Program-made: the position numbers and the translations under genes | Source: Patescibacteria group bacterium | GTDB taxonomy: Bacteria > Patescibacteriota > CPR2 > UBA1875 | Assembly (NCBI GenBank): GCA_041737595.1 | Contig: JBGSRK010000010.1 | Coordinates: forward strand, 64,001 to 128,000 | Direction of reading: 5' to 3' | Length of the DNA: 64,000 bases | In this document: one piece after another, positions 4,046 to 21,101 of the stretch | Layout: each line of letters opens with the position of its first letter | How positions within the stretch are numbered: the stretch's first letter is position 1 | The notes under the pieces: generated by a model | Database searches by the model: none | Told to the model about the DNA's origin: nothing | Seen by the model: only the letters and a program-made list of their open reading frames with translations

Positions 4046-4051
4046 TTTATC

Positions 4052-5211: not shown

Positions 5212-5595
5212 TTAAACTTGATTATTAATCTTTTCTTTTAACTTATTCCAAAATAAAAAGGTTGAAATAAAAATCCAACCAATAAAAAGCACCCAGAACC
5301 ACCAAGGAATATTTCGGCCCCAACCAATTACATAAATATATGGCATAACCCAAGCGGCTCGATTAACCACTAATGGGAAAATAAATCCGTTTTCGGTTAG
5401 AATATCTGTAATTTTAAGATTTAAATTTTTGTCTTTATATCTTTTTCTAAAATCTACTGCCTCGCGCAAAAGCCCATACCAACCGAAGTAATAGAATGGG
5501 ACAGAAAATAACATCAAAAAAATAAATATTTTTGGGTCAACATGATATTGGTTAACAGCGAGATCGTTCCATATCTGAATAATATTAATATTCAT
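5212..5595 (-). CDS. Small membrane protein
   Basis: About 3 hydrophobic segments; overlaps the upstream gene. Confidence 0.7.
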   Translation of the reverse strand: MNINIIQIWNDLAVNQYHVDPKIFIFLMLFSVPFYYFGWYGLLREAVDFRKRYKDKNLNLKITDILTENGFIFPLVVNRAAWVMPYIYVIGWGRNIPWWFWVLFIGWIFISTFLFWNKLKEKINNQV

Positions 5596-6373: not shown

Positions 6374-6499
6374 TAATAATTGCTTTAACCACTACATTTT
6401 AACATAATTTATTATTTTTTATCATAAAACTTGTAATTCAAAAAAAACTAAAAATCAATTAACTCCATTCACAATAAATGTGTATATACCACACTACTA

Positions 6500-6551
6500 T
6501 ACTTCACTTTATGAAAGCATAAGCATGTTATGTACTTCGCTTTAGCGAAGT
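6500..6551. repeat. 52-bp dispersed repeat, copy 2
   Basis: Ends in perfect hairpin ACTTCGCT-TT-AGCGAAGT. Confidence 0.85.
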
Positions 6552-6566
6552 GGTTAGACAAAAAAA

Positions 6567-7235: not shown

Positions 7236-7327
7236 TTTATCTCCTTTTACTACTTATAATTATTCTACCACTAATTACTTAAAATATTATATTCCTTATC
7301 TTAAAAATATAGACCTAGATATTATAA

Positions 7328-7361
7328 CATAAGCATGTTATGTACTTCACTTTAGTGACGT
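7328..7361. repeat. Partial third copy of the 52-bp repeat
   Basis: CATAAGCATGTTATGTACTTCACTTTAGTGACGT. Confidence 0.8.
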
Positions 7362-7399
7362 GACTATATAAATTTTACTAAATATATTTATTTTTATTC

Positions 7400-7425
7400 A
7401 CTTTACTAATGTACATTAGTAAAGT
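7400..7425. repeat. Perfect 26-bp palindrome, possible operator
   Basis: ACTTTACTAATGT-ACATTAGTAAAGT between divergent genes. Confidence 0.65.
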
Positions 7426-7492
7426 AGTTAAAAATATTTTTAAAAAAATGAATAAATATCGGTGTTTGTGATAAAATTTATCTACATATTTT

Positions 7493-7963
7493 ATGAACTA
7501 TTTATATTTAACCCCAGAAGATAAAGATAAGGTCGAAATAAAAATCGACCTGTTAAAACATGAAAAGGAGTTATTTTCACGAAAACTTGGAGAAGCTGCA
7601 GCACACGGTGGGTCATTCCCCCAAGGAATTCCAGAATATGTTGTTCTTGAAAATAAAATTCATCGGTTGGAAGATGAAATGATTTTGCTTAAAAAAATAT
7701 TAGATGAATACGAAATTATCGAAATAGAAAAATTACCAAAAAATATTATTACTACTTATTCCAATGTAAAAGCAGAAAATAATGAGAATATAACTACCTT
7801 TCAAATAATCGAGTCTATAATATCTAAAGAAAAAGATGGAATAAAAATAGTTTCTCCCAAAAGCCCTGTTGGTTCGGCGTTTCTTGGGAAAAAGAAAGGA
7901 GAGGTTGCAAAAGTCAACCTCCCCCAAAAAAACGAGATATATAAAATTCTAGAAATTAATTAA
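7493..7963 (+). CDS. GreA/GreB-family factor with atypical tip
   Basis: YLTPE start, coiled coil, C-terminal VSPKSPVGSAFLGKKKGE. Confidence 0.85.
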   Translation: MNYLYLTPEDKDKVEIKIDLLKHEKELFSRKLGEAAAHGGSFPQGIPEYVVLENKIHRLEDEMILLKKILDEYEIIEIEKLPKNIITTYSNVKAENNENITTFQIIESIISKEKDGIKIVSPKSPVGSAFLGKKKGEVAKVNLPQKNEIYKILEIN

Positions 7964-7969
7964 TCTTTT

Positions 7970-8290
7970 TTATATTTTCCCAATATCATCTGTCTGAAGT
8001 GCTTGATTCATTTCAATAATTCTATTTTTTAATAATTCAAATTCTTCTCGAGCAATGATATCAATATTAGGAACATTATCTACAATATATTTATTTGCTT
8101 CTTCATTTTTACCTTCAGCAATAATTTTCTCAAGTTCTTTAACTTTTTCTTCAGGTAATTCATCCATAATTCTTGATGAAATTTTTTCTTCTAAAATCTC
8201 TGCGTATTTCTTGCGCATCTCGTCTTTTTCTTCATTACTTAAATGTTCAAGTTTAAGTTCTTTAATTAAATCAAATTTTAGATCTGTCAT
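7970..8290 (-). CDS. DUF5663-like small acidic helical protein
   Basis: Typical CPR family pattern ending VPNIDIIAREEF; GGAGG RBS. Confidence 0.65.
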   Translation of the reverse strand: MTDLKFDLIKELKLEHLSNEEKDEMRKKYAEILEEKISSRIMDELPEEKVKELEKIIAEGKNEEANKYIVDNVPNIDIIAREEFELLKNRIIEMNQALQTDDIGKI

Positions 8291-8300
8291 AATTCCTCCT

Positions 8301-10682
8301 TTAACCCATTAATGTACCAACCCAAGTTAACGAACCTGCAGGTAATCCAACTGCAATGCCAGCAATGCCCATATTTCTTAATATATGATTTCTAACAATA
8401 TTCTCTTCATCATGTCTCTTATCTATAGATCTATCAAAAGTTCTTATAGACTCTAACAATATCTTACTCCTAGCTGCTTCAATTTCTCCAAGAGTTAATG
8501 GGATTTTTTCACCTTTTTTTTCTTGAGCTTTTTTTAGTTCTTTTTTAAGTTTCTCGACTGTAAGCACTTTAAGTCTTTTCGTCATTTCTTCTACTTGGTG
8601 TTCATAACTTAGTCTATCTTCCTCATGTGCACCTCTTATCGGATGTACACCAGTCCCAATTCTTTCGCCAACTCTTATATTATGTGCAGCCTGTGCACCA
8701 AGTCTTTTATAAATATCATCTTCTGACATTGCATCAATTACTCCAGATTCTTGTTTATGTAATAAACTATCTCTATTTCTATTCCTTGTCTCAGAGAAGG
8801 CGTGAGTTGCAGATGCTGCAGATGTGGCACCAAGTAGCCCAACAACTATTGGTAAACCGCCACTAGCTGTTAGAGTAATGGCTGCACCAGAAATAGCAAT
8901 TGATGCGACAGATGAAATAACTGGATGTTTTCTAATAAAATTTTTCACCTTCCGATAGGCACCACCAAACAAACCTTCATTATCTTCTTTATCAGCTTCT
9001 TCATTAATTCTGTTTTTACTTTCTTCTTCAAAAAATAATTTTGCGGTTTCTTCGTGAACTAAATCAAAGAAAGATTTTGCCCATTTTTCTAATTTTTTAT
9101 TGTATTGTTCAAGAGTTTCTTTAGGTTTTGGTTTTAATCTTTCCCATTCATCCATTTGCATAGGTCTCTTTGGTTTTATATCTCTTTTTGCATTCTCATA
9201 TTCTTCTATTGTTAATGGTTCTTGAGGTTTTTCATCTTTATGTTTAATTAATGATTTTTCATATTTAGCCACTTTAAGATCAAAATCAATTTGTGTTTCG
9301 TTTACCCCTCTTTTTGGTGGTACTGGTTCACTGCCTTTCCAAGCCTTTAATTTTTTATCATACTCATATGGGTTTCTCGATTCATAATTTTCTTTCCATT
9401 CTTTTTCTCTCAAAGTATATTTATATGGGCTCACATCATCATTAGCTTCTTCCCATTCTTTTAATGTTTTTTCATAAGTCTCTTCTGTTTCTATTCTTTC
9501 GGGCCTTCTTCCACGTTCACTTCTTTTAGCCCTTGCTAATCCTTCTTGATTCGCATAATTTAGGATACCTGATTCATATTCAACACGAGCACGATTTAAT
9601 TCACCCTGTTTAGCTGGGTTCCAAGTGAATTGTGATCTAAGTTTTCTTTTATCTAAAAGTCTATCAGTATAATTGTTTCTTAGTGTTGAAATATCAATAT
9701 ATCCGCCTGTTTCTCCTGAACTTTCATATAACTTAGTTGCAGTTTCAATTAATGTATAGTTTGTATCATCGATTTTTTCAGTTTCAGACGGTTCAACAGA
9801 ATCACCATCTTCACTCCTTGGCTTGTTCCCACTCCCATCATTATCACTATTTTCTCCATCCTCCCCAGTAGTTGCTGGGGGAGTATTATTTGGGTCTGGT
9901 GGAGTTGATGGTTGAATTGGAGGTTGAACAGGCTCTTCGTCTTCATCTTCTTTAGTTTCTTTTTTACCCTCTTCTTCTAAAATTTTATCTATAGTTGAAA
10001 TAGTATCGTTAATCCATTCTAATGTGGTTCTTATTTCAGTTGAAGTCCCTTCGTCTTCGACATGAGATCTTATTAAAATTTGAATCGCAAGAAGAACTTT
10101 TTTCATTTTTTTCGCATCTATCATATCTTCTACAAATTCAGCGGGGTTATTACTAATTTGTTCTAACTTAGCCAATAAACTTTTGACCCCTTTGGGAGAA
10201 ATTTCAGTTAATACTTTTAATATTTCTTCTGATAGAAATTCACCACCTTTGGCTTTTTCACCTTTTTCTTCTACTTCTTTAGCCTCTTTTTCTGCTCGTT
10301 CTTTTGCTATAATTTCATCTAATTTCTCTTTTTGAGCCTTTTCCATTTCTCTTTTTGCAGCATTTTCTTGTCTTTGAGTTACTTCAAAAAATGGTCTTAT
10401 TTCACCAACTCTATCCCCAGTTTCATCTATAATATCTCCTATACGCGCGCCTCCACGTACTAAAGAATCATTCGATTTTATTCTAGAATTAATTTGATTT
10501 CTAGTTTGTTCGACTGTCATATCTGACTGCTCGGCAATTTCTTGAACATTGGTTGCACCTAAACCTTCGGCAGTTTTAAAATCATCACCAAACTCTCCAT
10601 TATGCATAGAGTCTGTATATTGAGTAGTTGGAGACTTATCTCCTCCCCCCTCTAATTCATGATATGAAATAACTTCGCTCAT
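8301..10682 (-). CDS. Large hypothetical protein, charged and repetitive, with C-terminal hydrophobic segments
   Basis: 793-aa ORF with GGGGG RBS; Pro-rich linker. Confidence 0.75.
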   Translation of the reverse strand: MSEVISYHELEGGGDKSPTTQYTDSMHNGEFGDDFKTAEGLGATNVQEIAEQSDMTVEQTRNQINSRIKSNDSLVRGGARIGDIIDETGDRVGEIRPFFEVTQRQENAAKREMEKAQKEKLDEIIAKERAEKEAKEVEEKGEKAKGGEFLSEEILKVLTEISPKGVKSLLAKLEQISNNPAEFVEDMIDAKKMKKVLLAIQILIRSHVEDEGTSTEIRTTLEWINDTISTIDKILEEEGKKETKEDEDEEPVQPPIQPSTPPDPNNTPPATTGEDGENSDNDGSGNKPRSEDGDSVEPSETEKIDDTNYTLIETATKLYESSGETGGYIDISTLRNNYTDRLLDKRKLRSQFTWNPAKQGELNRARVEYESGILNYANQEGLARAKRSERGRRPERIETEETYEKTLKEWEEANDDVSPYKYTLREKEWKENYESRNPYEYDKKLKAWKGSEPVPPKRGVNETQIDFDLKVAKYEKSLIKHKDEKPQEPLTIEEYENAKRDIKPKRPMQMDEWERLKPKPKETLEQYNKKLEKWAKSFFDLVHEETAKLFFEEESKNRINEEADKEDNEGLFGGAYRKVKNFIRKHPVISSVASIAISGAAITLTASGGLPIVVGLLGATSAASATHAFSETRNRNRDSLLHKQESGVIDAMSEDDIYKRLGAQAAHNIRVGERIGTGVHPIRGAHEEDRLSYEHQVEEMTKRLKVLTVEKLKKELKKAQEKKGEKIPLTLGEIEAARSKILLESIRTFDRSIDKRHDEENIVRNHILRNMGIAGIAVGLPAGSLTWVGTLMG

Positions 10683-10735
10683 TAACCCCCTTTTGGTATA
10701 AGTATTATAAGATAATTAGTATAAAAAAGAAATGT

Positions 10736-12442
10736 TTAACAGGTATAGAAAGAATCAATCTGTTTTTTATACTTTTCTGTGATTTCTTTCCGGCGAGCTT
10801 TTAAAGTTGGAGTTAGAAGACCATTCTCAACCGTAAAAGGCTTCTGAATAATTAAAAATTTTCTAATTTGTTCATAAGTCGCTACATCTTTATTCAAAAA
10901 GATATCTATTTCTTTTTGGATAACTGCGTACTGTTTTTCTTTATTAAAACCCTGAATTTTTGTTTTTTCTGGGACAATTAATGCAGCAACATGTTTTTCA
11001 CAATCTCCAAAAACAAATGATTGTGAAATATATGGAGACATTTGCATCTTTTCCTCAAGGTGAGCTGGCCCGACATTTTTGCCCGTTGAAAGAACTATTA
11101 TTTCTTTTTGTCTTGCTCCAAATTTTATAAATCCTTCTTTATCTATAGTGACAAGGTCACCGGTCTTAAACCAACCATCAGTTGTAAAAGCTTCTTTAGT
11201 TGCTTCTGGATTTTTATAATAAGACTTAAAAACATTTGGACCCTTTACTAAAAGTTCTCCATTTTTTACTTTTACTGAAACATTTGGAAGAGCCTTCCCT
11301 ACAGTCCCATATTTTCTATTTTTTAAAGTATTATTAGCTAAAATCGGGGATGTTTCTGTTAGCCCAAATCCCTCTAAAACTGGGATATCAAGTGCATCAA
11401 AAAATTCACCAATTTCTTGTGCAAGTGACGCTGCGCCTGAAACAAAAAATCTTAATTGCCCACCAAACGCATTTTTTATTTTATGAAAAACAACTTTGTC
11501 GGCTAATTTATATGCAATTGTATCTCTTGGAAAATCTTTACCTATTTTAAAAGCAATTTTAAATATTATTTTTGTAATCGGTGATTTTTCGGCTGACTCT
11601 TTAACTTTGGCGTAAACTTTTTCAAAAAGACGTGGGACCGCAATTATTATAGTTGGTTTCTCTTTTTGAGCAAATTCGGAAAGCTGATTTGAATCAATAA
11701 CATAAGAAATTGTTGCACCGCGCACGAGAGGAATATAATATCCAACTGTTCTTTCAAACACATGAGAGAGTGGCAAAATTGATAAAAACTTATCATTTTC
11801 GGTTATTTCTACACCTGCAAGAACGCCCTCAATGTTTGACATAATATTTCGATTAGTTAACTCAACCCCCTTAAATCTACCAGTTGTGCCCGAGGTATAA
11901 ATTATAGTAATAATTCTATCTTCATCATGTTTTATTGGATTAATTTTAGTTTCATATTTTCGATCATATACTTCAGTTTTAAAAAGATAAGTTGATTTAT
12001 CTAATAAGGTTGGGTGGTCAGATTCTAAATCTGATTCCATATAAATTATTTTTGTATTTTTTGGGAAAATATTTTTAATTTCAGAAACCTTATCAAAAAT
12101 TTCTCTGTCGGACACAAATATCATTTTAGGTTCTGTTTCTTCAATTATGCTACTAATTTGGGTAGCAGAAAGGACACTATGAATAGGGACCAATATTGCT
12201 CCTAAAATTAATGAAGCAATATCTGTTATAACCCATTCTGGTCGATTTTCTGAGATAATCATAATTCTATCATTAGAAACAACACCCATGTCTTTCATGA
12301 AGATAGCTAACTTCTCAGCATATTTATATATCTCAGCATATGAAAGTGATTCAAAATGATGATTTTCTTTATAAAAAAGTGCAGTTTTTTCTGGAAACTT
12401 CCCTACACTTTCTATAAATGAATCTATAACAGTTGTTTTCAT
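10736..12442 (-). CDS. fadD: Long-chain fatty acid-CoA ligase (AMP-dependent synthetase)
   Basis: YTSGTTG, GFGLTETSP, GWFKTGD and LTPTLKARR motifs. Confidence 0.92.
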   Translation of the reverse strand: MKTTVIDSFIESVGKFPEKTALFYKENHHFESLSYAEIYKYAEKLAIFMKDMGVVSNDRIMIISENRPEWVITDIASLILGAILVPIHSVLSATQISSIIEETEPKMIFVSDREIFDKVSEIKNIFPKNTKIIYMESDLESDHPTLLDKSTYLFKTEVYDRKYETKINPIKHDEDRIITIIYTSGTTGRFKGVELTNRNIMSNIEGVLAGVEITENDKFLSILPLSHVFERTVGYYIPLVRGATISYVIDSNQLSEFAQKEKPTIIIAVPRLFEKVYAKVKESAEKSPITKIIFKIAFKIGKDFPRDTIAYKLADKVVFHKIKNAFGGQLRFFVSGAASLAQEIGEFFDALDIPVLEGFGLTETSPILANNTLKNRKYGTVGKALPNVSVKVKNGELLVKGPNVFKSYYKNPEATKEAFTTDGWFKTGDLVTIDKEGFIKFGARQKEIIVLSTGKNVGPAHLEEKMQMSPYISQSFVFGDCEKHVAALIVPEKTKIQGFNKEKQYAVIQKEIDIFLNKDVATYEQIRKFLIIQKPFTVENGLLTPTLKARRKEITEKYKKQIDSFYTC

Positions 12443-12468
12443 CTTGCCCTTAGTATAACAAAAAGTTT

Positions 12469-13275
12469 TTAATAATCTATCTTAAAAAATTTGCAGGCTT
12501 CATAAAAAATTGTTCTTTTTGCGGGTTCAGAAAGAAATGCATGATAAACATTATCAATTTTAAATATTTGCTTTCTTTTTGAACTAACTGAATCAATTAT
12601 TATTTGAGGTGATTCAGGTCTAATTAAGTTACTTTTTTCTGATTGAATGACAAGAACGTCACAAGTAACTTTTTTTAAAAAACTTTTTTGTTTCTCAATA
12701 AATTCAATAACTTGTGCAATATTATCTAGTGGCATCTTATCAAGCACTCCTTGTTTAAAAACAATTTCTTTTTCAGGGTGTTTTAAAACTTTCAAATATT
12801 GTTTATTCCAATATTCCATTCCTATTTTTTTAGCATAAGGTATGGCTCTTTTCGTTATAGGTTGATATTTGATTTTCATTGGTGTTTCGATACATACAAG
12901 GCCTTTAATTATACCCGGATGGATTGCATCGAATTTTAAAGCTAAATTACCACCAAATGAAATAGCGACAATATATATTTCTTTAACATTTTTTGATAAT
13001 TCTAAAATTCCTTTTTCAACTTCATTATACCAATCCTTAGGGGTGGTTTTAGCTAAATCTTCCCAATTAGTCCCATGACCTGGCAATAAAACTCCCTTAG
13101 TAGTTATTCCTCTTTTTGAAAGAAATTTTGCAAAGCCATTAACCCGACAAAGTGAATCAGAAAAACCATGGACAAAGAATATAGCTCTTTCACCGGCTGG
13201 ATAATAAAAGGCTTGAGCTTCTTTTGGGACCTCATTAATTTTTATATCATTTTTTTCAACAGTTAATGTATTCAT
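12469..13275 (-). CDS. Alpha/beta hydrolase, carboxylesterase/monoacylglycerol lipase-like
   Basis: HGF, LPGHG and AISFGG nucleophile elbow. Confidence 0.85.
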   Translation of the reverse strand: MNTLTVEKNDIKINEVPKEAQAFYYPAGERAIFFVHGFSDSLCRVNGFAKFLSKRGITTKGVLLPGHGTNWEDLAKTTPKDWYNEVEKGILELSKNVKEIYIVAISFGGNLALKFDAIHPGIIKGLVCIETPMKIKYQPITKRAIPYAKKIGMEYWNKQYLKVLKHPEKEIVFKQGVLDKMPLDNIAQVIEFIEKQKSFLKKVTCDVLVIQSEKSNLIRPESPQIIIDSVSSKRKQIFKIDNVYHAFLSEPAKRTIFYEACKFFKIDY

Positions 13276-13367
13276 ATAATTAAAACGGAAAGCCCATTAA
13301 GCTTTCCACCTTGCAATAATTATAACATACTTTTATAATTAGAATGCAATAATATATTGAAGGACAT

Positions 13368-13754
13368 ATGGCTATAAAAATTATACTTGCGGAAGATGAC
13401 CTACAATTAATCGACATGTATCGTCGAAAGTTCGAGATGGAAGGTTTTGAAGTCCAATTTGCTGAAGATGGAGAAAAAGCAATTACAATTTTAGAAGGTT
13501 GGAAACCCGATATTGCACTCCTTGATATTATGATGCCGAAAGTAAATGGATTAGATGTTTTAAAATACATTAAAGAAAAACAAGGGTATGAAGATGTAAT
13601 CACTGTAATGCTAACCAACCTCGGTAATGAATCAACTGCTGAAGAAATTTATAAACTCGGGGCAACTGAATATATTGTAAAGGCAGATATGACCCCTCTA
13701 GAAGTCTCGGATAAAGTGAAAGCTTTAATAAAATTTTACAAAAAAGGCGCATAA
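13368..13754 (+). CDS. Single-domain response regulator
   Basis: EDD, LLDIMMP, T and K receiver residues. Confidence 0.93.
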   Translation: MAIKIILAEDDLQLIDMYRRKFEMEGFEVQFAEDGEKAITILEGWKPDIALLDIMMPKVNGLDVLKYIKEKQGYEDVITVMLTNLGNESTAEEIYKLGATEYIVKADMTPLEVSDKVKALIKFYKKGA

Positions 13755-13764
13755 AAGCGCCTTT
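13742..13764. terminator. Bidirectional intrinsic terminator
   Basis: AAAAGGCGC-ATAAAA-GCGCCTTTT between convergent genes. Confidence 0.7.
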
Positions 13765-13788
13765 TCAGATTGTTATTTAATAAGATAT

Positions 13789-14280
13789 TTAGTTTTTAGA
13801 TATCTCTTCTAAGGTTTCTATAATTTTATCTTTTTCCTGTTCCCCTATTAATCTTTTAACTTCTGTACCATCTTTAAAAAATATTAATGCTGGGACACTT
13901 TCAATCTTATAATCAGTTGCAGATTTTGAAGAAGTCATAACATCAAGTTTACCAATTTTATATTTTCCTTTAAATTCTTTGGCAATTTCAGTGATAACGG
14001 GACCAAGGTTTTGGCAATGAGGACATGTTGGTGAAAACATATCAACCATTACAATCCCCTTATATTCTAAAACCTCTTTATCAAAATTATCGTCGGTTAT
14101 TTTTATCTCAGGCGCTTCGATCTTTGAAGCTGCATTTTCTACTGTATTATCTGTTTGGATTATACTTTCTGACTTTGAATCTGTTGATCCACTAGAAAAT
14201 TTAATTGCGACCCCTACTCCTAAGATTGCAAGAAATGCTACTATCCCAATAACTATAGGCGTAATGTTTTTTGTTTTCAT
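13789..14280 (-). CDS. Membrane-anchored thioredoxin-family protein
   Basis: N-terminal TM; CPHC; cis-Pro SVPAL. Confidence 0.88.
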   Translation of the reverse strand: MKTKNITPIVIGIVAFLAILGVGVAIKFSSGSTDSKSESIIQTDNTVENAASKIEAPEIKITDDNFDKEVLEYKGIVMVDMFSPTCPHCQNLGPVITEIAKEFKGKYKIGKLDVMTSSKSATDYKIESVPALIFFKDGTEVKRLIGEQEKDKIIETLEEISKN

Positions 14281-14364
14281 AATGATTATTCTACTCCATT
14301 AATTATTATTTTCATAATAGATTTATAATATATTTTTCTATTAATTCTATGGCTTATTTTGAAC

Positions 14365-14440
14365 TGGTGGGCCCGGTGCGGCTCGAACGCACGACCAATT
14401 GCTTAAGAGGCAACTGCTCTACCAGCTGAGCTACGGGCCC
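14365..14440 (-). tRNA. tRNA-Lys(CTT)
   Basis: Cloverleaf; GTTGC-CTCTTAA-GCAAT anticodon arm; encoded CCA. Confidence 0.96.
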
Positions 14441-14635
14441 ACGTCGGAATTCGCTGACGGATTCCGACGTGGGCCAAACCAAGTCTTCATCCTTTCGCAA
14501 ATCCTCCTCTTTCGGCAAAAATCAATAGATTTTGTCGATTTAAAATGAAAATCTGTTGGTTTTCATTTTTGAGGAAGAATAACGAGAAACCGAAAAAAAT
14601 ATATAATTTTGAAGGTTGTCAGTTTATTCTGATGA

Positions 14636-14711
14636 TGGTGCGCCCGGTAGGATTCGAACCTACGACCAATAGCTTAGAAGGCTACTGCTCTATCCCCTGA
14701 GCTACGGGCGC
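14636..14711 (-). tRNA. tRNA-Arg(TCT)
   Basis: GTAGC-CTTCTAA-GCTAT anticodon arm; encoded CCA. Confidence 0.96.
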
Positions 14712-14900
14712 ACGTCAGCGAAAGCTGACGTGCTTCAAAATAATTTATATTATTTATTCCGCACTTACGCTACGCTTCCTTTGCAATTTAAATCAACAGA
14801 TTTAAATTGTCTTTTTAACTTCGATATTATAACGTATTTCAAGAAAATATTCCATTGTTTAAACTAGTTTGATACAATATAATATGTAAAAGAGGGGAAA

Positions 14901-15575
14901 ATGGACTCAACAATAAAACCACAAAATGAATTTTATACACCTGAAACAGGAATAGTTCCTGGCGCTGAATCTCAGGTCGCTCAGGCTGGACAAGATATTA
15001 GTGCAGAAAATCCATTCCCAAATATCCAACCTTCTGAAATTCTCACAAATACAATGGCTTCAGAGGTTACTCAACCACAGTCAGAATTACCAGTTGAGTC
15101 TGATGATGAATTGGCAAAAGAAATTAACGCTGGGCCAGATTTAAAAGTTGTACCAGACCCTGCAGAAATTTCTATTGATTCTACTTATACTAATGATGTC
15201 CCCGAAGCTACCCCAACAGTGATTGAACCAGCACCAATTGAAACTGTTCAACCCGAAATTGTAGCCGAAACACCTGAAGTAATAGAAGAAGTAAAGGAAG
15301 ATCCAGAAGCAATATTATCAGAAATTGACGAAGACTTTGAAGCTATAGATGGGAAAATTGCAGAATATCTAAGTGCAAACCGAGAAAAAATAACCTCTTT
15401 AGAAGATTCTATTAAAGAGGCCGAAGATAGACTTGAGAATACAAGACTTGCAACAGAACAAAGTATTAAAGATAAAAAAGCTGAAATTGTTGAACTTAAA
15501 AAAATGCGAGACAGAATAAGTGCTTATAAAGAGAGAACTAAAATAAATAAAAATCCTACTGAAATCGCAGCATAA
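14901..15575 (+). CDS. Acidic disordered protein with C-terminal coiled coil
   Basis: GAGGGG RBS; E/P-rich N-terminal half. Confidence 0.75.
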   Translation: MDSTIKPQNEFYTPETGIVPGAESQVAQAGQDISAENPFPNIQPSEILTNTMASEVTQPQSELPVESDDELAKEINAGPDLKVVPDPAEISIDSTYTNDVPEATPTVIEPAPIETVQPEIVAETPEVIEEVKEDPEAILSEIDEDFEAIDGKIAEYLSANREKITSLEDSIKEAEDRLENTRLATEQSIKDKKAEIVELKKMRDRISAYKERTKINKNPTEIAA

Positions 15576-15589
15576 AATACCCGTGTTTA

Positions 15590-16306
15590 TTATTTTATAA
15601 CGAACCCGATATACCTTGCAGATATATTTTTAGGTAATAAATCTAGTATTTTACCAAAAAAATTTATTACATTTTCTAATATAGAATAGTATCTGCCTTT
15701 TTTGGTTACAAATCTAAAATAAAAATGTCCAACATAATCTGCTTTCGTTAAATTATGGTCAGTTGTCCTGATATATCTTTTTATTTTATTTAGAGACATA
15801 GCATCAGATATATGATTTTCAAGAACCTTAGGTTCTAATATTTTATAAAGAAAATGGTAAAGTGGAGAATTTAGATTTGGAACTTCTATTAAGCATATTC
15901 CATTTTTACCCATTAAATTTAAGTGTTTATCAATTATTTTTGTCCAATTATTAAAATGTTCAATAAATCCAAAAGAACATACTAAATCATATTTTCTAAA
16001 AGATCTGTAATTAAGAAAGTCATTTTTTTGGAATACCCCACATTTATAGTTTTTAGACTTAAACCACTCTTCCATAACATTAATATTTTCGTTCCAATCT
16101 ACACCGTTTATTTCATAGCCCATTTTGCCTATTAAAGCTAGAAATTTTCCTGGATAACAACCTATTTCAAGACATTTTAGATTATCCCCTGTTGGAGTAT
16201 TATTATTTATCCATAAAGCAACAGGATGAGTAGTTATAGTAGCCTCTTTATATATAACTTTTCCCCAATGTTCTTCCCAATAATTAATATCTGTTATTGA
16301 CCCCAT
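15590..16306 (-). CDS. Class I SAM-dependent methyltransferase
   Basis: LEIGCYPG and SFGFIEHF motifs. Confidence 0.85.
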   Translation of the reverse strand: MGSITDINYWEEHWGKVIYKEATITTHPVALWINNNTPTGDNLKCLEIGCYPGKFLALIGKMGYEINGVDWNENINVMEEWFKSKNYKCGVFQKNDFLNYRSFRKYDLVCSFGFIEHFNNWTKIIDKHLNLMGKNGICLIEVPNLNSPLYHFLYKILEPKVLENHISDAMSLNKIKRYIRTTDHNLTKADYVGHFYFRFVTKKGRYYSILENVINFFGKILDLLPKNISARYIGFVIK

Positions 16307-16363
16307 AAATTGATTTTAACACAAAAAAGAAACTGTTTAAGGTTTCTTTTTTATAATAATTAC

Positions 16364-16392
16364 TGGGGTCGGATAGTGAGAGATATCAGAAC
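16364..16392. repeat. att-like repeat ending (minus strand) in ACCCCA, copy 1
   Basis: 26/29 identical to 16803-16831; adjacent terminator hairpin. Confidence 0.85.
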
Positions 16393-16406
16393 CGAGATTT
16401 TTAGAA

Positions 16407-16745
16407 CTATTTAACACACGCTAATATAATAAAAGCAAAAACTGCTAAAGTTATACCAAAATATCCTATTGGCGACAAAACTTCTTTCAAAAATAAAAAA
16501 CTTAATAAATTAACAAGAATAATAGAAAAAGCACCAAACATTGCCATTGTTTTTCCAACTGGCATTGTGGTGAAAACATATAATTGTCCAAATGTTGCTA
16601 CGGTTCTCATTAATGTATATCCCAGAAACCACCAGGTAAGAAATGTTGAAATAGTAAAACCATTTCTTTGCATACCACTTTTTGCTAAGATGTCCCCTGA
16701 GGTAAAAAGAATCTGAGATATTGCTAAAACTATTAACGGATTCAT
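16407..16745 (-). CDS. SMR/EamA (DMT) family small membrane protein
   Basis: 4 TM helices; FLFLKEVLS..YFGI motif. Confidence 0.75.
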   Translation of the reverse strand: MNPLIVLAISQILFTSGDILAKSGMQRNGFTISTFLTWWFLGYTLMRTVATFGQLYVFTTMPVGKTMAMFGAFSIILVNLLSFLFLKEVLSPIGYFGITLAVFAFIILACVK

Positions 16746-16802
16746 AAAATAATTTTAACACAAAAAGGAACCTAAATCGGTCCCTTTTTGTAATATTTAA
16801 AA

Positions 16803-16831
16803 TGGGGTCGGATAGTGCGAGAAGTCAGAAC
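16803..16831. repeat. att-like repeat, copy 2
   Basis: TGGGGTCGGATAGTGCGAGAAGTCAGAAC. Confidence 0.85.
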
Positions 16832-16870
16832 TAAAATAGTACAAAATGCTATTAATTTTGCAAAATTGGT

Positions 16871-17578
16871 TTGATGGTGCTAAAATTAAATATGGATAGA
16901 GACGTCAAACAGATTGAGTCGATTTACGGAAGCAACACCTTCCTGAGCGAACAAAAAGAAAATAAAGAAGTGAAGCACCTAAGAAGGGTGTTTTTTTCGT
17001 TAACAAAGGATTTGCACGGCAAAAGAATATTATTCATTGGTTGTGGTGATGGCGAAGAATCCATCCAATACAGCAAATGTGGTGCAACAGCATATGGTGT
17101 TGATATTAGTCCCTTATTAATCGCGGAAGCGAAAAAAAACAATCCTTTGGGTAAATTTATGGCAGGAGATTTTCGGAATATTGCTATAAAGAACTCTTTT
17201 GATATTGTTGTATCTATTTTGTCACTGCATTACTCAAAAGATTTAAATAACTCGTTTTCAAAAATATACACACTTCTTAAGCCTGGTGGGATTTGCTTGA
17301 TAGCGACCACTCACCCAACCCATAAAATGGTTACATACAACAACGGGAATTATTTTCGAAAAGGTAAGGTTTGGTATGAATGGAAGGGGTTAAAAAGATT
17401 TAATTATTTCTATCTTATAGAAGATTATATAAACGGTTTTGCAAAAAGTAATTTTCAGATAAAAGAAATGCTTGAAGTTTTTACCCCAGTTAAATTCCGT
17501 TCAGTAGAAAATAAAAATAATGAAAACCCTATCTTTACTATATATAAGATTAAAAAACCATTAAATCAAATAGATTAA
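16871..17578 (+). CDS. Class I SAM-dependent methyltransferase (start may be ATG 16892)
   Basis: ILFIGCGDG, GVDIS, SLHY and LLKPGG motifs. Confidence 0.87.
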   Translation: MMVLKLNMDRDVKQIESIYGSNTFLSEQKENKEVKHLRRVFFSLTKDLHGKRILFIGCGDGEESIQYSKCGATAYGVDISPLLIAEAKKNNPLGKFMAGDFRNIAIKNSFDIVVSILSLHYSKDLNNSFSKIYTLLKPGGICLIATTHPTHKMVTYNNGNYFRKGKVWYEWKGLKRFNYFYLIEDYINGFAKSNFQIKEMLEVFTPVKFRSVENKNNENPIFTIYKIKKPLNQID

Positions 17579-17659
17579 TTCTGATAAGGCATCTTCTAGG
17601 GTAAATATTAGAACTAAAAAAGAAGTCCTTTTGAACTTCCTTTTTAATCTTTTCAAAAC

Positions 17660-17737
17660 TGGGGTGGCTGATGGGATTCGAACCCACGACCCTCGGCACC
17701 ACAAGCCGATGCTCTAACCAACTGAGCTACAACCACC
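17660..17737 (-). tRNA. tRNA-His(GTG), with encoded G-1
   Basis: TCGGC-TTGTGGT-GCCGA arm; C73 discriminator; CCA. Confidence 0.96.
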
Positions 17738-17741
17738 ACGT

Positions 17742-17818
17742 TGGTGCGCCCTGAGGGATTCGAACCCCCGGCCTTCTGGTCCGAAGCCAGACGCTCTATC
17801 CAGCTGAGCTAAGGGCGC
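17742..17818 (-). tRNA. tRNA-Arg(TCG)
   Basis: TCTGG-CTTCGGA-CCAGA arm; CCA. Confidence 0.95.
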
Positions 17819-17841
17819 ACATTTTTTAGTTTCTTATATAT

Positions 17842-17916
17842 TGGAGCGGGTAAGGAGAGTCGAACTCCTGTCTTCAGCTTGGAAGGCTGACATAATAGCC
17901 ACTATACGATACCCGC
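17842..17916 (-). tRNA. tRNA-Gly(TCC)
   Basis: TCAGC-CTTCCAA-GCTGA arm; U73; CCA. Confidence 0.96.
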
Positions 17917-17918
17917 AT

Positions 17919-17994
17919 TGGTCGGGGAGACAGGACTCGAACCTGCGACCTCATGGTCCCAAACCACGCGCGCTACCAGCTGCGCCACTCCCCG
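17919..17994 (-). tRNA. tRNA-Pro(TGG)
   Basis: CGTGG-TTTGGGA-CCATG arm; CCA. Confidence 0.96.
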
Positions 17995-18165
17995 TCATCG
18001 TCGAAATCTGCTTATGAGTTTTGACATGGCCATCCAAGTCTTAACCCAACTGCAGTTTCTCCTCTTAGAACAAAATCAACAGATTTTGTTCTTTTGAAGC
18101 AAATTACAAACAAGTTATAACGAGGATAATTATAACCGATTTATAGCTATTTATCAATAAATTTA

Positions 18166-18189
18166 AAAAGGAGCCAGTGGCTCCTTTTT
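18166..18189 (-). terminator. Intrinsic terminator after hup
   Basis: AAAAGGAGCCA-G-TGGCTCCTTTT inverted repeat. Confidence 0.75.
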
Positions 18190-18190
18190 A

Positions 18191-18463
18191 TTATCTAACT
18201 TCTTCTTTTAAACCTTTACCAGCACGGAAACGAGGAAGTTTCATACTTGGTATAGTGATTTCTTTCCCAGTTTGAGGATCACGTCCTCTGCGTTTAGCAA
18301 TTTGCCCAAGATAAAATGTTCCAAATGAAGTAATAGAAACTTTTTCGCCTTTTTTTATTTTTTCAGTTATTGATTCAACCATGCTATTCATTATTTTTTC
18401 AATTTCTCTTTTTGAATGGCCGGTCTTTGTTGCAAGTTCTGATACTAATTCTCTTTTTGTCAT
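18191..18463 (-). CDS. hup: HU family DNA-binding protein
   Basis: FGTF...RRGRDPQTG...PRFRAGKGLKE. Confidence 0.95.
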   Translation of the reverse strand: MTKRELVSELATKTGHSKREIEKIMNSMVESITEKIKKGEKVSITSFGTFYLGQIAKRRGRDPQTGKEITIPSMKLPRFRAGKGLKEEVR

Positions 18464-18490
18464 TTTTACTCCTTTTATTTCAACTTAAAT

Positions 18491-18519
18491 ATTTTATCAA
18501 TCGTTTATCCCTATGTCAA
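18491..18519 (-). promoter_or_regulatory. Sigma70-type promoter of hup
   Basis: TTGACA-17bp-TAAAAT with TG extension. Confidence 0.7.
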
Positions 18520-18531
18520 AGGATTTTTTTA

Positions 18532-19320
18532 TTATTTATCAATCCTTTTAATTTTTATTGGTTTAAATTCTTTATCAAATGAAATTAAAACTGAATTAAA
18601 AACACCTTTTCCATCGGCTACTTCAAATTTACCACCTGTACCCTTTATAAATCGTTCAAGTATAATTTCGCTTTTAACTCCAAGCACAGAATTTTTTGGA
18701 CCTGTCATTCCAACATCTGAAATATAAATGGTACCATTTTTTAGAATCTTTGCATCTGCTGTTGGAACATGTGTGTGAGTACCAATTACTGCTGATATCT
18801 TACCATCTGCATGAAACCCCATTGCAACTTTTTCTGATGTCATTTCTGCATGAAAATCTAGAATTGAAATATCATAATCTTTTTTGCTAGCAAGGATTTC
18901 ATCAAGTTTTTTAAATGGGTTAGAAGTTTTTTCATTTATTCCTTCTTTACCAAGAAGATTTATTATTAACAACCTGCCGAAAGAAGTTGTAAGAACACGA
19001 TAACCGTGACCTGGATATTTAGAGGTAAAGTTTGCTGGTCTTAAAACAGGCATTCCTTTTTTTGCGATATCTGTAATAAATGATTTTTCTCTCCAAACAT
19101 GATTACCTGTAGTAAAAAAATCTATTCCCACTTCGTGCATTTCAAGTAAAATATCGCGGTTAACACCTACTCTTTCAGAAAGATGTTCACCATTAGCAAT
19201 AACATAATCAATCTTATATTTTTCTCTTATTATCGGTAAATATTTTTTTACAGTATCTCGACCAGCTTTACCTATAATATCTCCGATAAATAATATGTTT
19301 ATTTCTTTTTTTGAGGTCAT
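18532..19320 (-). CDS. ymdB: YmdB-family metallophosphoesterase
   Basis: GDIIG, TGNH, DFHAEMTSEK and GTHTH motifs; downstream of rny. Confidence 0.93.
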   Translation of the reverse strand: MTSKKEINILFIGDIIGKAGRDTVKKYLPIIREKYKIDYVIANGEHLSERVGVNRDILLEMHEVGIDFFTTGNHVWREKSFITDIAKKGMPVLRPANFTSKYPGHGYRVLTTSFGRLLIINLLGKEGINEKTSNPFKKLDEILASKKDYDISILDFHAEMTSEKVAMGFHADGKISAVIGTHTHVPTADAKILKNGTIYISDVGMTGPKNSVLGVKSEIILERFIKGTGGKFEVADGKGVFNSVLISFDKEFKPIKIKRIDK

Positions 19321-19371
19321 TTTTTTCCTTCTTCAGTTAGATACTGATCCATTTATAATGGAAACCCCTGT

Positions 19372-20895
19372 TTATTTTGCGTATTCTACTGCCCTCGTCT
19401 CACGAATAACATTTACTTTAATTTGACCTGGATATTTAAGATCAGACTCAATTTTTCGGGCTACTTCTTTGGCTAATTTTTCAGCACCAAGATCGTCTAT
19501 TGCTTTAGGAGTAACCATCACACGAACTTCGCGGCCAGCTTGAATTGCAAAGGCTTTTTCAACCCCTTCAAAAGAAGTAGCTATGCCTTCTAGCTCAGTT
19601 AAGCGCTTAATATAATTATCCATTGAGTCTCTTCTTACCCCTGGGCGAGATGCAGAAATTGCATCAGCTGAAAGAATAATAATAGCTTCAACGGTTTTTG
19701 GTTCAACATCTTCATGATGAGCTTCAACTGCATGTTGTATTTCTTCAGAGATTCCATATTTTTTACAAATATCTCGAGAAATAATAGCATGAGAGCCAGT
19801 CATTTCTTGATCAATTGCTTTACCTATATCATGCAGGAGACCAGCTTTTTTCGCAATTGCAACATCTGCACCCATCTCAGCAGCCATTGTACCTGCAAGG
19901 TGTGCTGTTTCGATTGAGTGATCTAATACATTTTGAGAAAATGAGGTTCTAAATTTTAAACGGCCAATAACTTTTAAAAGTTCAACTGGAAGCCCAGCAA
20001 CACCAGTTTCATAGGCTGCTCTTTCTCCGGCTTCTTTAACAATTTTATCAATATCAGCTTGTGCTTTTTCAACAGCTTCTTCAATTTTTGAAGGATGAAT
20101 GCGACCGTCTGCTATTAAACGTTCTAGAGTTAGCTTAGCAACTTGTCGACGAACAGGGTCAAAACCTGAGATAACAATAGTTTCTGGAGTATCATCAACA
20201 ATAATATCGCAACCAGTTAATTTTTCGATTGCTTGGATATTTCTTCCTTCTCGGCCAATTATTCTTCCTTTCATTTCATCGCTTGGTAGGGTAATTGCAG
20301 TAACTGTGGATTCGGCGGTTTGATCTGAAGAAAGTCTTTGAATAGCAGTTGCAATTATTTCTCTTGCCTCTTTGTCTGCATCTTCTTTGGCGTCATCTTT
20401 TACTTTTCTAATTCTTTCAACAATATCTTTCTTATAATCTTTTTCTACCATTTCAAGTAATTTTTTTTGAGCATCGTCTTTTGAAAGTTTAGAAATCTTT
20501 TCTAAATTTTTTTCTTGTTTTTCTCGTAGGTCACGAAGATAATTTTTGTTTTCATCTATCTCTGCTTTATCTTTTTCTATTGCATCTCTTTTTGTGTCAA
20601 TATCTGTTAATTTTTTATCAATTGATTCTTCTTTGATCGCAAGTCTTTTTTCCAGGTCTAATAGGTCTGATCTTCTTTCCTTTTCTTCTTTTTTTGCAAT
20701 GTCAGTAATTTTTGAGGCTTCTTCTTTTGCATTAAGAATTGTTTCCTTTGCTTCGGACTTTGCGCTATCAATTACTTTTTGGGCCTGGGCTTCAGCATTT
20801 GAGGTTTGTGTTTTTGCTTTTACGTTGCGCGCCACCCAACCAGAAACACCCCCAGCCGTAAGCCCGACTACAAGCCAAACTAATATCGGTGTCAT
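19372..20895 (-). CDS. rny: Ribonuclease Y
   Basis: TM + coiled coil + KH (GRIIGREGRNI) + HD (HDIGK); start moved to the ATG after AAGGAGA. Confidence 0.96.
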   Translation of the reverse strand: MTPILVWLVVGLTAGGVSGWVARNVKAKTQTSNAEAQAQKVIDSAKSEAKETILNAKEEASKITDIAKKEEKERRSDLLDLEKRLAIKEESIDKKLTDIDTKRDAIEKDKAEIDENKNYLRDLREKQEKNLEKISKLSKDDAQKKLLEMVEKDYKKDIVERIRKVKDDAKEDADKEAREIIATAIQRLSSDQTAESTVTAITLPSDEMKGRIIGREGRNIQAIEKLTGCDIIVDDTPETIVISGFDPVRRQVAKLTLERLIADGRIHPSKIEEAVEKAQADIDKIVKEAGERAAYETGVAGLPVELLKVIGRLKFRTSFSQNVLDHSIETAHLAGTMAAEMGADVAIAKKAGLLHDIGKAIDQEMTGSHAIISRDICKKYGISEEIQHAVEAHHEDVEPKTVEAIIILSADAISASRPGVRRDSMDNYIKRLTELEGIATSFEGVEKAFAIQAGREVRVMVTPKAIDDLGAEKLAKEVARKIESDLKYPGQIKVNVIRETRAVEYAK

Positions 20896-20917
20896 TTTCT
20901 CTCCTTTTCTCAACACT

Positions 20918-21101
20918 TAAAAGGCGGTTGAGTATAAGCCGCAAGCTGACAATATTTAGTCACATAACCTAGGTAGTTTTTAACTAGCCTGATTATTTAT
21001 ATTTGAGATTTAAAGACAAAATAATATTTTGAGTCGGATTAATATGAATTTTTTAATATATTTTAGTTTCTCTAGGTTGTCAGCTTTTTATTTTAATTTC
21101 T
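20918..21101 (-). ncRNA. Candidate structured RNA (6S-like or leader) upstream of rny
   Basis: Long-range pairs AAGCTGACAA/TTGTCAGCTT and AACCTAG/CTAGGTT; consensus promoter upstream; hairpin plus U-tract downstream. Confidence 0.45.

Follow-up and report, generated by a model that had tools for sequence, protein, structure and literature searches.

A small gene array behind tRNA-His in an ultra-small bacterium: a probable insertion hotspot of large serine recombinase elements

Behind the tRNA-His gene of a Patescibacteria group bacterium, a small array of genes is interrupted by 29-bp repeats, and these repeats are the leftover attP P arms of large serine recombinase (LSR) mobile elements that insert at the tRNA-His end. 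The region from 17659 to about 15590 of the window, i.e. the whole stretch of 64,000 nucleotides analysed, is probably a tRNA-His hotspot built by one clade of LSR integrative elements of the Patescibacteria. The array is treated here as a hotspot for insertions; to call it a new kind of integron would go beyond what is proven. In this way bacteria whose genomes measure about 1 Mb would gain accessory genes, with one tRNA end gathering small units from serine-integrase elements. The arrangement was not found described in the literature searched, and databases of the TIGER/Islander type or supplements may list such islands.

Layout of the array and its repeats

The tRNA-His(GTG) gene, with encoded G-1 and CCA, occupies 17660..17737 of the minus strand (G-1 at 17737; ARAGORN, Rfam and the sequence itself). 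With the repeats it has only its final hexamer in common, ACCCCA (17660-17665), in which they too end, as the sequence-only reading had stated. Ten nucleotides past the tRNA stands a hairpin with A and T tracts, T0 (17612..17649, minus strand; -17.4 kcal/mol, z -4.9), followed by E0, a 37-nt element with inverted ends (17578..17614, minus strand) that is recognized by its conservation and overlaps the stop codon of methyltransferase gene 1. This gene, the cargo of unit 1, encodes a class I SAM-dependent methyltransferase (Pfam Methyltransf_11, 65 bits) and is convergent with tRNA-His according to the ORF list and the sequence; it had been placed in the minus-strand order, but it runs on the plus strand from its ATG at 16892 to 17578. 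Its promoter-like site, TTGCAA-17-TAAAAT with TG (in full, TTGCAA-17-TGcTAAAAT), is found at 16858..16886 of the plus strand, 5 nt before the ATG.

Repeat R1 (16803..16840, minus strand) consists of the 29-mer at 16803-16831 and 9 conserved upstream bases, and its plus strand reads WGRIVREVRT. It is followed by hairpin T1 (16759..16792, minus strand; -19.6 kcal/mol, z -6.3), by an extended -10-like site, TGTGTTAAAAT (16752..16762, minus strand), and, 6 nt further, by the ATG of the unit 2 cargo, a gene for a 112-aa four-helix membrane protein (16407..16745, minus strand). The TAG stop of this gene lies within a partial copy of the left end of R2 (16393-16409). R2 itself (16364..16399, minus strand; the 29-mer at 16364-16392 plus upstream bases; plus strand WGRIVRDIRT) leads to hairpin T2 (16320..16355, minus strand; -12.0 kcal/mol, z -4.3), to a second TGTGTTAAAAT site (16313..16323, minus strand) and, again after 6 nt, to the ATG of methyltransferase gene 2 (15590..16306, minus strand; class I SAM-dependent; Pfam Methyltransf_23, 54 bits). 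Both modules are equal in length and layout. No repeat follows methyltransferase gene 2, and the repeat model found no third copy beyond it at E values up to 10; this gene is either the cargo of the oldest unit or a resident gene of the B' side. The uniform cassette layout once proposed does not hold: each unit comes with a promoter-like site of its own, and methyltransferase gene 1 is inverted.

Direct reading and a pattern search agree with the earlier description of R1 and R2 as minus-strand repeats identical at 26 of 29 positions. The repeat pattern gave no match in 100 shuffles of the sequence, and the genome-wide check that had been proposed places exact copies of its 15-nt core only at R1 and R2 across the 1.09-Mb genome; the third core match has 2 mismatches and is unrelated. 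Exact copies of TGTGTTAAAAT in the window number two, each 41 nt past a repeat. Of the extended -10 that had been singled out at both junctions, what stands is the identical 11-mer: TGnTAAAAT occurs 235 times in the genome and TGnTAnAAT followed by N4-8 and ATG 65 times. Only the exact 11-mer is special, and an extended -10 near the ATG is a genome-wide habit.

Several other identities for the repeats and their surroundings were tried and rejected. We took TGTGTTAAAAT to resemble a XerD arm, and a Xer/dif-like site was dismissed because no matching left arm is present in the sequence. The repeat is not a fragment of the tRNA, since on direct reading the 29-mer cannot fold as T arm plus acceptor, and no Rfam family attains its threshold at R1 or R2. 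Some local similarity to the flank of R1 (p about 0.005) is seen at about 15505-15545, within the last part of ORF 14901-15575; the repeat model finds nothing there. The idea that the repeats are relics of a paralogue of this ORF was superseded by the LSR result below, and the ORF has no homologue at E <= 0.001 in 27 other genomes of the order. Foreign GC content was also discarded: the array has 29.5% GC, and the contrast of 31% GC with the genome value of 38.5% is misleading, because the contig itself averages 32.6 +/- 4.6%.

The 112-aa protein, formerly identified as SMR, can be called only SMR/DMT-like, as it scores below the curated cut-offs of Pfam Multi_Drug_Res (PF00893; 17.5 bits against 23.7), NIPA (21.7 against 26.2) and NCBIfam SMR_qac (SMR_qac_int; 16.9 against 188). 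Within the class its closest relatives, at 43-44% identity, are encoded on other contigs. Relatives of the methyltransferases in the class are distant, with at most 32% identity for methyltransferase 1 and, outside G000, 32% for methyltransferase 2.

An ordinary tyrosine-integrase island in which the tRNA 3' end recurs as a direct repeat, or a local duplication of an intergenic module, would agree with the position beside a tRNA and with modules alike in length and layout. Either is extremely improbable here. A direct repeat of at least 15 nt of the tRNA 3' part is absent, 6 nt being in common with the tRNA; no integrase ORF appears in the ORF list for 13000-21000, five ORFs of which were run against Pfam; and the repeat is not a local duplication, because the 29-mer is present in 17 of the 32 class genomes.

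The repeat is the tail of an LSR gene

Read in reverse complement, the repeat turns out to be the final codons of an LSR gene. In G025 (locus L042), an intact LSR of 549 aa, encoded at 9504-11150, ends ...WGRIVCDVRT..., i.e. ...LTHWGRIVCDVRTEMILQV, and the reverse complement of the repeat copy at 11103-11131 encodes this end in frame; a second copy at 4307-4335, 6.8 kb on, bounds the element. In G163 (locus L080), the LSR ORF overlaps tRNA-His antisense, and WGRIVEVVRT followed by ACCCCA is found 17.9 kb from tRNA-His on the expected strand and side, attL and attR being 17.9 kb apart. Both LSRs possess Resolvase, Recombinase and Zn_ribbon_recom/zinc-ribbon domains above the Pfam cut-offs. In the six frames of the whole genome studied here, this peptide pattern matched three times, two of the matches being R1 and R2. 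A search for the 29-mer at LSR 3' ends (WGRIV..VRT) had been suggested, and the tail was found in G025 and, at the protein level, in G163. The assignment of the repeats to serine-recombinase att arms is thereby supported by the in-frame LSR tail of the former and the same tail peptide in the latter.

ACCCCA is the sole block that the tRNA end shares with every well-matched repeat copy, and no dyad symmetry was seen between the repeat arm and the right arms. On the plus strand, direct reading places GAAC at positions 26-29 in the repeat, against 21-24 in the tRNA end. The 5-bp displacement of a zinc-ribbon motif between attP and attB of LSRs, with which this shift had been equated, is real in the extract of PMC3783163, and the GTTC offset is exactly 5 bp in the class; the match does not, however, extend to G163, where the P arm keeps the peptide VRT and the GTTC letters are absent.

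From these relations a course of integration can be proposed. The attP site would span the 3' end of the LSR gene itself, with the antisense of the last LSR codons (W-G-R-I-V-x-x-V-R-T) as P arm, the antisense of the W-G codons (TGGGGT, i.e. ACCCCA) as common core and the antisense of the preceding conserved codons, in G025 a hairpin with a T run, as P' arm. The 3' end of tRNA-His would serve as attB (B arm), and the crossover would fall within ACCCCA. Integration would then replace the LSR tail by tRNA-antisense codons, putting the hairpin of the element behind the tRNA and the P arm at its far end. R1 and R2 would accordingly represent P arms linked through ACCCCA to right arms that carry a hairpin, and T0-E0 beside the tRNA a decayed P' arm, T0 being the predicted terminator of the tRNA operon, derived from the P' side of an LSR element. 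The plus strand of E0 matches the region of the G025 LSR gene coding RLELNKK at 25 of 29 nt in a gapped alignment, and E0 probably represents what decay has left of the 3' coding part of such a gene. The array may have grown by repeated integration at the tRNA and subsequent loss of the LSR and backbone genes, leaving two methyltransferase genes and the SMR-like gene as putative cargo. Since no LSR of the relevant clade was found in the genome, where the best matches are 22-32% identical, the array may now be static.

Alternatively, repeat and hairpin could be retained for an RNA function, as part of a small RNA or of a 3' UTR in which a conserved single-stranded seed precedes a terminator, the recombinase link being secondary. 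Conservation of the 29-mer, its constant position just before a hairpin with a T run, and stems that vary in sequence and keep their structure are in line with such an element. It is very improbable, however, given that the 29-mer is the in-frame antisense of the last LSR codons, that G163 keeps the peptide while the letters change, that no Rfam family matches, and that the repeat is restricted to tRNA-His loci with up to 4 copies per array.

Some observations fit less easily with LSR insertion followed by decay. Decay alone does not obviously explain many neat single-gene units, and the right arms of R1 and R2 have no clear LSR-coding similarity beyond the hairpin. The lack of dyad symmetry of the arms, the missing terminal repeat past methyltransferase gene 2 and the unremarkable GC content belong to the same group. 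Repeated insertion at an occupied tRNA also needs an extra assumption, because canonical LSRs, as far as the extract of PMC3783163 goes, do not recombine attP with attL or attR.

The tRNA-His locus and the LSR clade among relatives

Among the 32 genomes of the class, the repeat is a feature of tRNA-His loci. The repeat model gave 30 matches in 17 genomes, and 27 of them are located downstream of tRNA-His on the same strand, at distances of 46 nt to 7.6 kb. Off this pattern are an inverted match in G028 and a partial one in G025:C70, away from tRNA-His; the match in G007 is unconfirmed and stands outside the 27. These matches, too, are at odds with the scar interpretation. With the 29-mer pattern at up to 3 mismatches, 9 of the 32 genomes were matched, and the reversed control matched none. 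Exact-pattern scans yielded 1 match in metagenome contigs and 2 in genome contigs; the UBA1875 record (G004) is the one true copy among the three, the other two having arisen by chance in DNA with 55-57% GC.

Unit number and content vary at the tRNA-His locus of relatives, as expected when its comparison was first proposed: across the 17 genomes, the arrays contain 1-4 repeat copies with different genes, which corresponds to the variable cassette content of integrons. An LSR is present in only 1 of the 9 arrays with ORFs listed. G001, in which tRNA-His is followed by a hairpin and a convergent HU gene with no repeat, fits a relative with unoccupied attB. G004 has a hairpin of the G001 type and the HU gene, but behind a repeat and with a 0.45-kb unit between; the two belong to different genera and provide a comparison, not a strain-level empty site. 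T0 is nearly identical in G004 and G014, and T0-E0 is 79-80% identical in three genomes. Between the window and G004 this identity is 79%, with 63% for the tRNA-His genes and about 50% for the next 100 nt.

It is unlikely, though consistent with part of these data, that the LSR-less units (repeat, hairpin, promoter and gene) are mobile cassettes, re-inserted at tRNA-His as small circles by an LSR acting in trans, as a serine-recombinase counterpart of the integron. Units in the mapped arrays are mostly 0.3-1.5 kb with one to few genes and differing content (the LSR-bearing unit of G025 is 6.8 kb), the T0-E0 ends are equal in three genomes with different genes behind them, and R1 is identical at 29 of 29 positions to the copy in G004, another genus. 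The right arms of the tRNA and of the repeats are merely an AT-rich spacer plus hairpin, and therefore attL may resemble attB, and attR attP, to the enzyme. Against these points, the genome has no LSR of the clade, no protein of the window cassettes was found in another array of the class, the units have their own promoter-like sites with one gene inverted, and the directionality rules of LSRs, in the extract of PMC3783163, oppose such reactions. Of three runs, all available as contigs, the two that contain the stretch stem from one study; their contigs are colinear with the window across the array and reveal no circle junction or alternative order, rare forms being invisible in contigs; the joints listed in them are all tRNA-to-tRNA cross-matches. 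Mobility in trans would amount to a second, unrelated solution to the integron problem.

A more specific proposal, which we consider quite unlikely, is that this LSR clade reads essentially the left half-site only, namely the T arm and acceptor of the tRNA in attB and its own tail-coding sequence in attP, with any AT-rich spacer plus hairpin as the right half-site. To such an enzyme attL would still be attB and attR still attP, and an incoming LSR could insert, excise and reshuffle LSR-less units. If true, this would be a serine-recombinase analogue of the integron and a store of accessory genes in ultra-small Patescibacteria.

The 424-aa LSR at 46658-47932, suggested from the window as the trans-acting enzyme, was rejected in this role; it falls in a different clade of shorter proteins and shares 30% identity with the G025 LSR (residues 4-401 of 549). 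Copies 77-92% identical are present in 7 other class genomes, and this LSR is not associated with the repeat, because the repeat occurs in 5 of the 8 genomes with it and 12 of the 24 without.

Insertion by the clade of the G025 and G163 enzymes finds further support across the phylum, where a homologue is present in 217 of the 401 genomes sampled. When the 120 listed homologues of the LSR C-terminus were sorted by the residues after the conserved W, tRNA-antisense tails (..DSN..) were seen in 64, a stop within 4 residues of the W in 34, and a W x5-7 [VIF][RG][TNM] tail in 15, with other tails in 3 and no anchor in 4; the three closest show WGG-stop, the antisense of the window tRNA-His end. 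Related proteins ending in tRNA-antisense codons are taken as the integrated form and those with the W..IV..VRT tail as the attP form. Of the best 30 LSR loci in the 401 genomes, the 3' end of the ORF overlaps a tRNA antisense in 24, covering 11 isotypes; 2 more adjoin a tRNA, and 4 do neither. The nearest phage or plasmid LSRs with alignments along most of the protein show only about 23-26% identity, the top value among those listed, 32%, covers 54% of its length, and no relative was found in the viral contigs searched with the LSR. With a clade this common and attP in its own last codons, attB and attP would be readable from the gene tail; this would be useful for the prediction of att sites and could possibly yield new integration tools.

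Comparison with known systems

Integrons depend on the tyrosine recombinase IntI, attI and attC, the last an imperfect palindrome. The array is similar to them in having small gene units at one fixed site, each ending in a related site, with content that differs between relatives. However, an IntI with attI and a common promoter Pc is lacking: the ORF list for 13000-21000 shows no integrase ORF, with Pfam run on 5 of these ORFs, and every unit has a TGnTAAAAT site to itself. One gene also points the other way. Paired inverse-core/core hairpins of the attC type are also absent, the 29-mer having no internal inverted repeat on direct reading and the only hairpins being the terminator-like ones behind it.

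The composite SCCmec islands are formed by Ccr serine recombinases at the 3' end of rlmH. As there, tandem units, many without a recombinase of their own, are lined up at the 3' end of one conserved gene with short serine-recombinase att repeats between them. The present array differs in its anchor, which is a tRNA, in its units, for the most part single genes of 0.3-1.5 kb, and in what is repeated, namely the P arm of the element instead of the target gene end. SSV-type archaeal integrases are tyrosine recombinases whose gene is split on integration into a tRNA; they have in common with the present LSRs an attP within the integrase gene and a tRNA gene as target, whereas here the exchange would concern only the last 10-16 codons, after which the ORF either continues or ends immediately.

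In Prochlorococcus tycheposons, repeated integration at one tRNA likewise pushes older elements inward and leaves att copies, remnants and cargo; according to the extract of 10.1101/2020.12.28.424599, 910 of 937 elements use tyrosine recombinases and the scars are partial tRNAs. In the present case the recombinase is an LSR, whose own 3' end forms the scar and has 6 nt in common with the tRNA.

Agreement in enzyme and site structure is seen with the large serine integrases of phages and other elements (A118/LI, phiC31, Bxb1), which have the same Resolvase, Recombinase and zinc ribbon domain set and a short common core of attL and attR; in this class, though not in G163, the P arm also has its GTTC-containing motif 5 bp farther out from the core than the tRNA arm does, in keeping with the extract of PMC3783163. 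Unlike these integrases, the clade has as its targets tRNA genes of many isotypes, at their 3' ends, and its attP, whose arms are without dyad symmetry, lies inside the last codons of the integrase itself, so that integration would exchange the protein tail.

The tRNA-His array and its counterparts in relatives

Along the minus strand of the window, the array is anchored at the tRNA cluster Pro-Gly-Arg-His, whose last member, tRNA-His (17736-17660, minus), has a terminal ACCCCA. Directly after it come a 10-nt spacer and the strong hairpin T0 (17649-17612, minus), then E0, a 37-nt element with inverted ends (17614-17578, minus). The first class I methyltransferase gene runs on the plus strand from its ATG at 16892 to 17578 and has its own promoter-like site. 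The 29-bp repeat R1 (16831-16803, minus) precedes the hairpin T1 and a copy of TGTGTTAAAAT that stops 6 nt short of the ATG of a gene for an SMR/DMT-like membrane protein of 112 aa (16745-16407, minus). The second repeat, R2 (16392-16364, minus), likewise has a hairpin (T2) and this 11-mer behind it, again with 6 nt before the start codon, here that of methyltransferase gene 2 (16306-15590, minus). An acidic convergent ORF (14901-15575, plus) has its stop 14 nt from the end of that gene, and tRNA-Arg(TCT) and tRNA-Lys lie beyond it. R1 and R2 are identical at 26 of 29 positions (0 matches in 100 shuffles) and are the sole copies in the 1.09-Mb assembly. Their repeat-to-ATG modules are of equal length, and the stems of T1 and T2, unlike in sequence, both fold well. 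The repeats, hairpins and gene order thus stand as described in the sequence-only reading, but the orientation of the first methyltransferase gene had to be corrected to the plus strand.

Several other features of this region were observed. The ORF at 14901-15575 encodes 224 aa with a coiled-coil-like C-terminus; it matched no Pfam family, with only a sub-threshold TraP-like match, and a search of 27 further genomes from the order brought up no homologue (E <= 0.001). The distance from tRNA-His to tRNA-Arg(TCT) is 2.9 kb in the window (region 14365-17994). In the distant relative G046 (L022), Pro-Gly-Gly-Thr-Arg-His-Arg(TCT) form one unbroken run, and Lys and Glu come after a further 0.4 kb or so. 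In G004, a genome of the window's family, Arg(TCT)-Lys lie in inverted orientation on the opposite flank of the cluster. Contigs from two public runs of one study break inside the SMR-like gene (window 16502-16584), at 16568-16584 in one and 16502-16548 in the other, where depth is low (6-12). Two more tRNA-His genes of differing sequence are found on small contigs of the window's genome, C72 (252-328) and C118 (562-636). The GC content of C118 is 47%, and that of the assembly is 38.5% versus 32.6% for the window's contig, a sign that some contigs of the bin are foreign.

When one genome per species was scanned for the exact pattern, the full R1-identical 29-mer turned up in Patescibacteria bacterium UBA1875 (G004), of the same family as the window's genome and a different genus. 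There, tRNA-His is followed by a near-identical T0-E0 and a 95-aa ORF, then by the repeat with a hairpin behind it, and last by a convergent HU gene. In G001, another genus of the family, a hairpin of the same kind and HU follow tRNA-His directly; therefore, G004 holds a 0.45-kb unit between two ACCCCA copies. Allowing up to 3 mismatches, the pattern is present in 9 of 32 class genomes, and the reversed control gave 0 matches. A model built from 15 copies detected 30 sites in 17 of the 32 (E <= 0.01). Of these 30, 27 lie on the contig and strand of tRNA-His, between 46 nt and 7.6 kb downstream of it, and an array holds 1 to 4 copies. The three exceptions are an inverted copy on the opposite flank of the tRNA cluster in G028, a partial copy on another contig (C70) of G025 and an unverified site in G007. 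An AT-rich spacer and a hairpin stand behind every well-matched copy. The genes between repeats vary from genome to genome, and comparison of these ORFs bore out the earlier expectation of variable content at the tRNA-His locus. Additionally, some copies are interrupted by GC-rich inserts between ..ACTA(T) and CCGACCCC (G008:C4:200365-200420, L133; G008:C4:203089 onward, L136; G021:C23:4320 onward, L132). One insert, of 19 nt, resembles a hairpin; the rest measure about 50 nt or more. Small insertion events in the att arm may account for them.

The repeat as the tail of a recombinase gene

In G025, a 549-aa ORF on the opposite strand ends ...LTHWGRIVCDVRTEMILQV, and the repeat nearest to tRNA-His is the antisense of its final codons, in frame. 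The ORF encodes a large serine recombinase (LSR), with Resolvase, Recombinase and zinc-ribbon matches that pass the Pfam cut-offs. It belongs to an element of about ten genes that is bounded by a second repeat 6.8 kb further along. Part of the LSR coding sequence also supplies the hairpin behind the repeat, which is the antisense of KTEALTSV codons, a peptide kept in most LSR homologues. These codons (L042, ~11050-11100) form a palindrome, the opposite strand of which is a hairpin with a T run; a dual use of the coding sequence, with the hairpin placed behind the tRNA by integration, is possible. On the plus strand, R1 translates as WGRIVREVRT and R2 as WGRIVRDIRT. In G163, from another family, an LSR overlaps tRNA-His, and WGRIVEVVRT followed by ACCCCA and a hairpin is found 17.9 kb off on the predicted strand and side. 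This complete 17.9-kb element (L080, G163:C1:349000-368999, 1682-19641) carries a Toprim primase-like gene together with metal or redox cargo: an M14 peptidase, an HMA (heavy-metal) P-type ATPase, and one DsbD-like and two DsbA-like genes.

The 120 listed homologues of the LSR C-terminal 150 residues were sorted by the residues after a conserved tryptophan. Tails antisense to a tRNA (..DSN.., antisense of the T loop) occur in 64, a stop within 4 residues of the tryptophan in 34, and a W x5-7 [VIF][RG][TNM] tail (e.g. WLRIVDNVRT) in 15; 3 are of other kinds and 4 are without the anchor. The three closest listed homologues end in WGG-stop, the exact antisense of the window's tRNA-His end. Among the 30 best LSR loci in 401 phylum genomes, the 3' end of the ORF overlaps an antisense tRNA gene in 24 (Gln, Ser, Asn, Trp, Glu, His, Arg, Met, Lys, Asp and Gly), a tRNA is adjacent in 2, and neither is seen in 4. 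Taken together, G025, G163, the tail sorting and the tRNA-overlapping loci argue that in this clade attP would span the LSR gene's own 3' end and attB would be the tRNA 3' end, integration swapping the protein tail. The repeats of the window are P arms, one side of attP, of a tRNA-His-specific LSR lineage. The in-frame tail in G025 and the far-end peptide in G163 confirm the proposal that they are serine-recombinase att sites at tRNA-His.

Proposed growth of the array

The repeat is an LSR arm that marks the far ends of tRNA-His insertions, whose content varies among relatives. The crossover would fall inside the 6 shared bases, and after integration the element's hairpin would take the place of the tRNA's terminator. 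The array would have grown by repeated integration at the tRNA and later loss of the LSR and backbone genes. According to the available text of PMC3783163, the zinc-ribbon motif occupies positions 16-24 in attP and 11-19 in attB. The GTTC offset between the tRNA and the window repeat is exactly 5 bp, a tentative fit to this geometry if the centre is at the first bases of ACCCCA; however, the P arm of G163 keeps the peptide but not the GTTC letters. Over the 85 nt behind tRNA-His, which take in T0-E0, the window, G004 and G014 show 79-80% identity. The tRNA-His gene itself is just 63% identical between the window and G004, and the 100 nt past T0-E0 are at chance level. On its plus strand, T0-E0 agrees at 25 of 29 nt with the part of the LSR gene that encodes RLELNKK, and the hairpin is in the corresponding place. 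T0-E0 is probably a decayed P' arm, the other side of attP, borne by an element and not inherited with the tRNA; the assignment of R1 and R2 is the firmer one.

The sequence-only reading proposed that LSR-less units were moved in trans, giving an integron-like array. An LSR is present in just 1 of 9 arrays with ORFs listed, most units are single genes with tidy ends, and T0-E0 has constant boundaries with differing genes behind it in three genomes; all three points fit this proposal, and fit compaction in very small genomes equally well. The window's genome has no LSR of the relevant clade (best matches 22-32% identical), and no other array in the class genomes searched was found to carry any of the three cargo genes. 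Also, canonical LSRs do not take attL or attR as substrates, as stated in the text available for PMC3783163. These points argue against active movement here. Movement in trans is unlikely. The public-run contigs are colinear with the window; being assembled contigs, they are uninformative on rare circles. An integron was rejected, since no IntI was seen among the ORFs listed for 13000-21000, there is no attC-like palindrome, the units have their own promoter-like sites and one gene is inverted.

The LSR at 46658-47932 (plus; 424 aa; Resolvase, Recombinase and zinc ribbon), suggested as the acting enzyme, is an unlikely candidate: it belongs to another clade, and the repeat occurs in 5 of 8 genomes with a close copy versus 12 of 24 without one. 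Copies 77-92% identical exist in 7 other class genomes, across families and with different neighbours; G003 has a second copy of this type (77%), and further copies in G004 are at just 50-52%. It looks like a separate mobile recombinase without association to the tRNA-His repeat.

The extended -10 near the ATG is a general habit of this genome and not specific to the array. The genome has 65 occurrences of TGnTAnAAT with N4-8 and then an ATG, often right behind a terminator T run, and the terminator-promoter-ATG layout is also seen behind tRNA-His of relatives without a nearby repeat. Examples of such sites in the window are 16752-16745, 16313-16306 and 16878-16894. This suggests that leaderless mRNAs and a fused terminator-promoter layout are widespread in the genome.

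Comparison with known systems

By domain content, the LSR of the repeat clade is a large serine recombinase, but one distant from those that have been studied. Over its full length, identity to phage and plasmid LSRs is ~23-26%; the top value among the matches listed, 32%, covers 54% of the protein. In the literature searched, no account was found of LSRs that target tRNA genes and have attP in their own tail, or of arrays of this kind; island databases may already contain them. Parallels exist for the separate parts. SSV-type tyrosine integrases also have attP inside the integrase gene. SCCmec-type islands are tandem arrays and, like the present array, contain units without a recombinase that lie at the end of a single conserved gene. 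Tycheposons, as far as described in the accessible text of the preprint, are tRNA-anchored islands formed by repeated integration and decay, and resemble the array in both respects (bioRxiv 10.1101/2020.12.28.424599).
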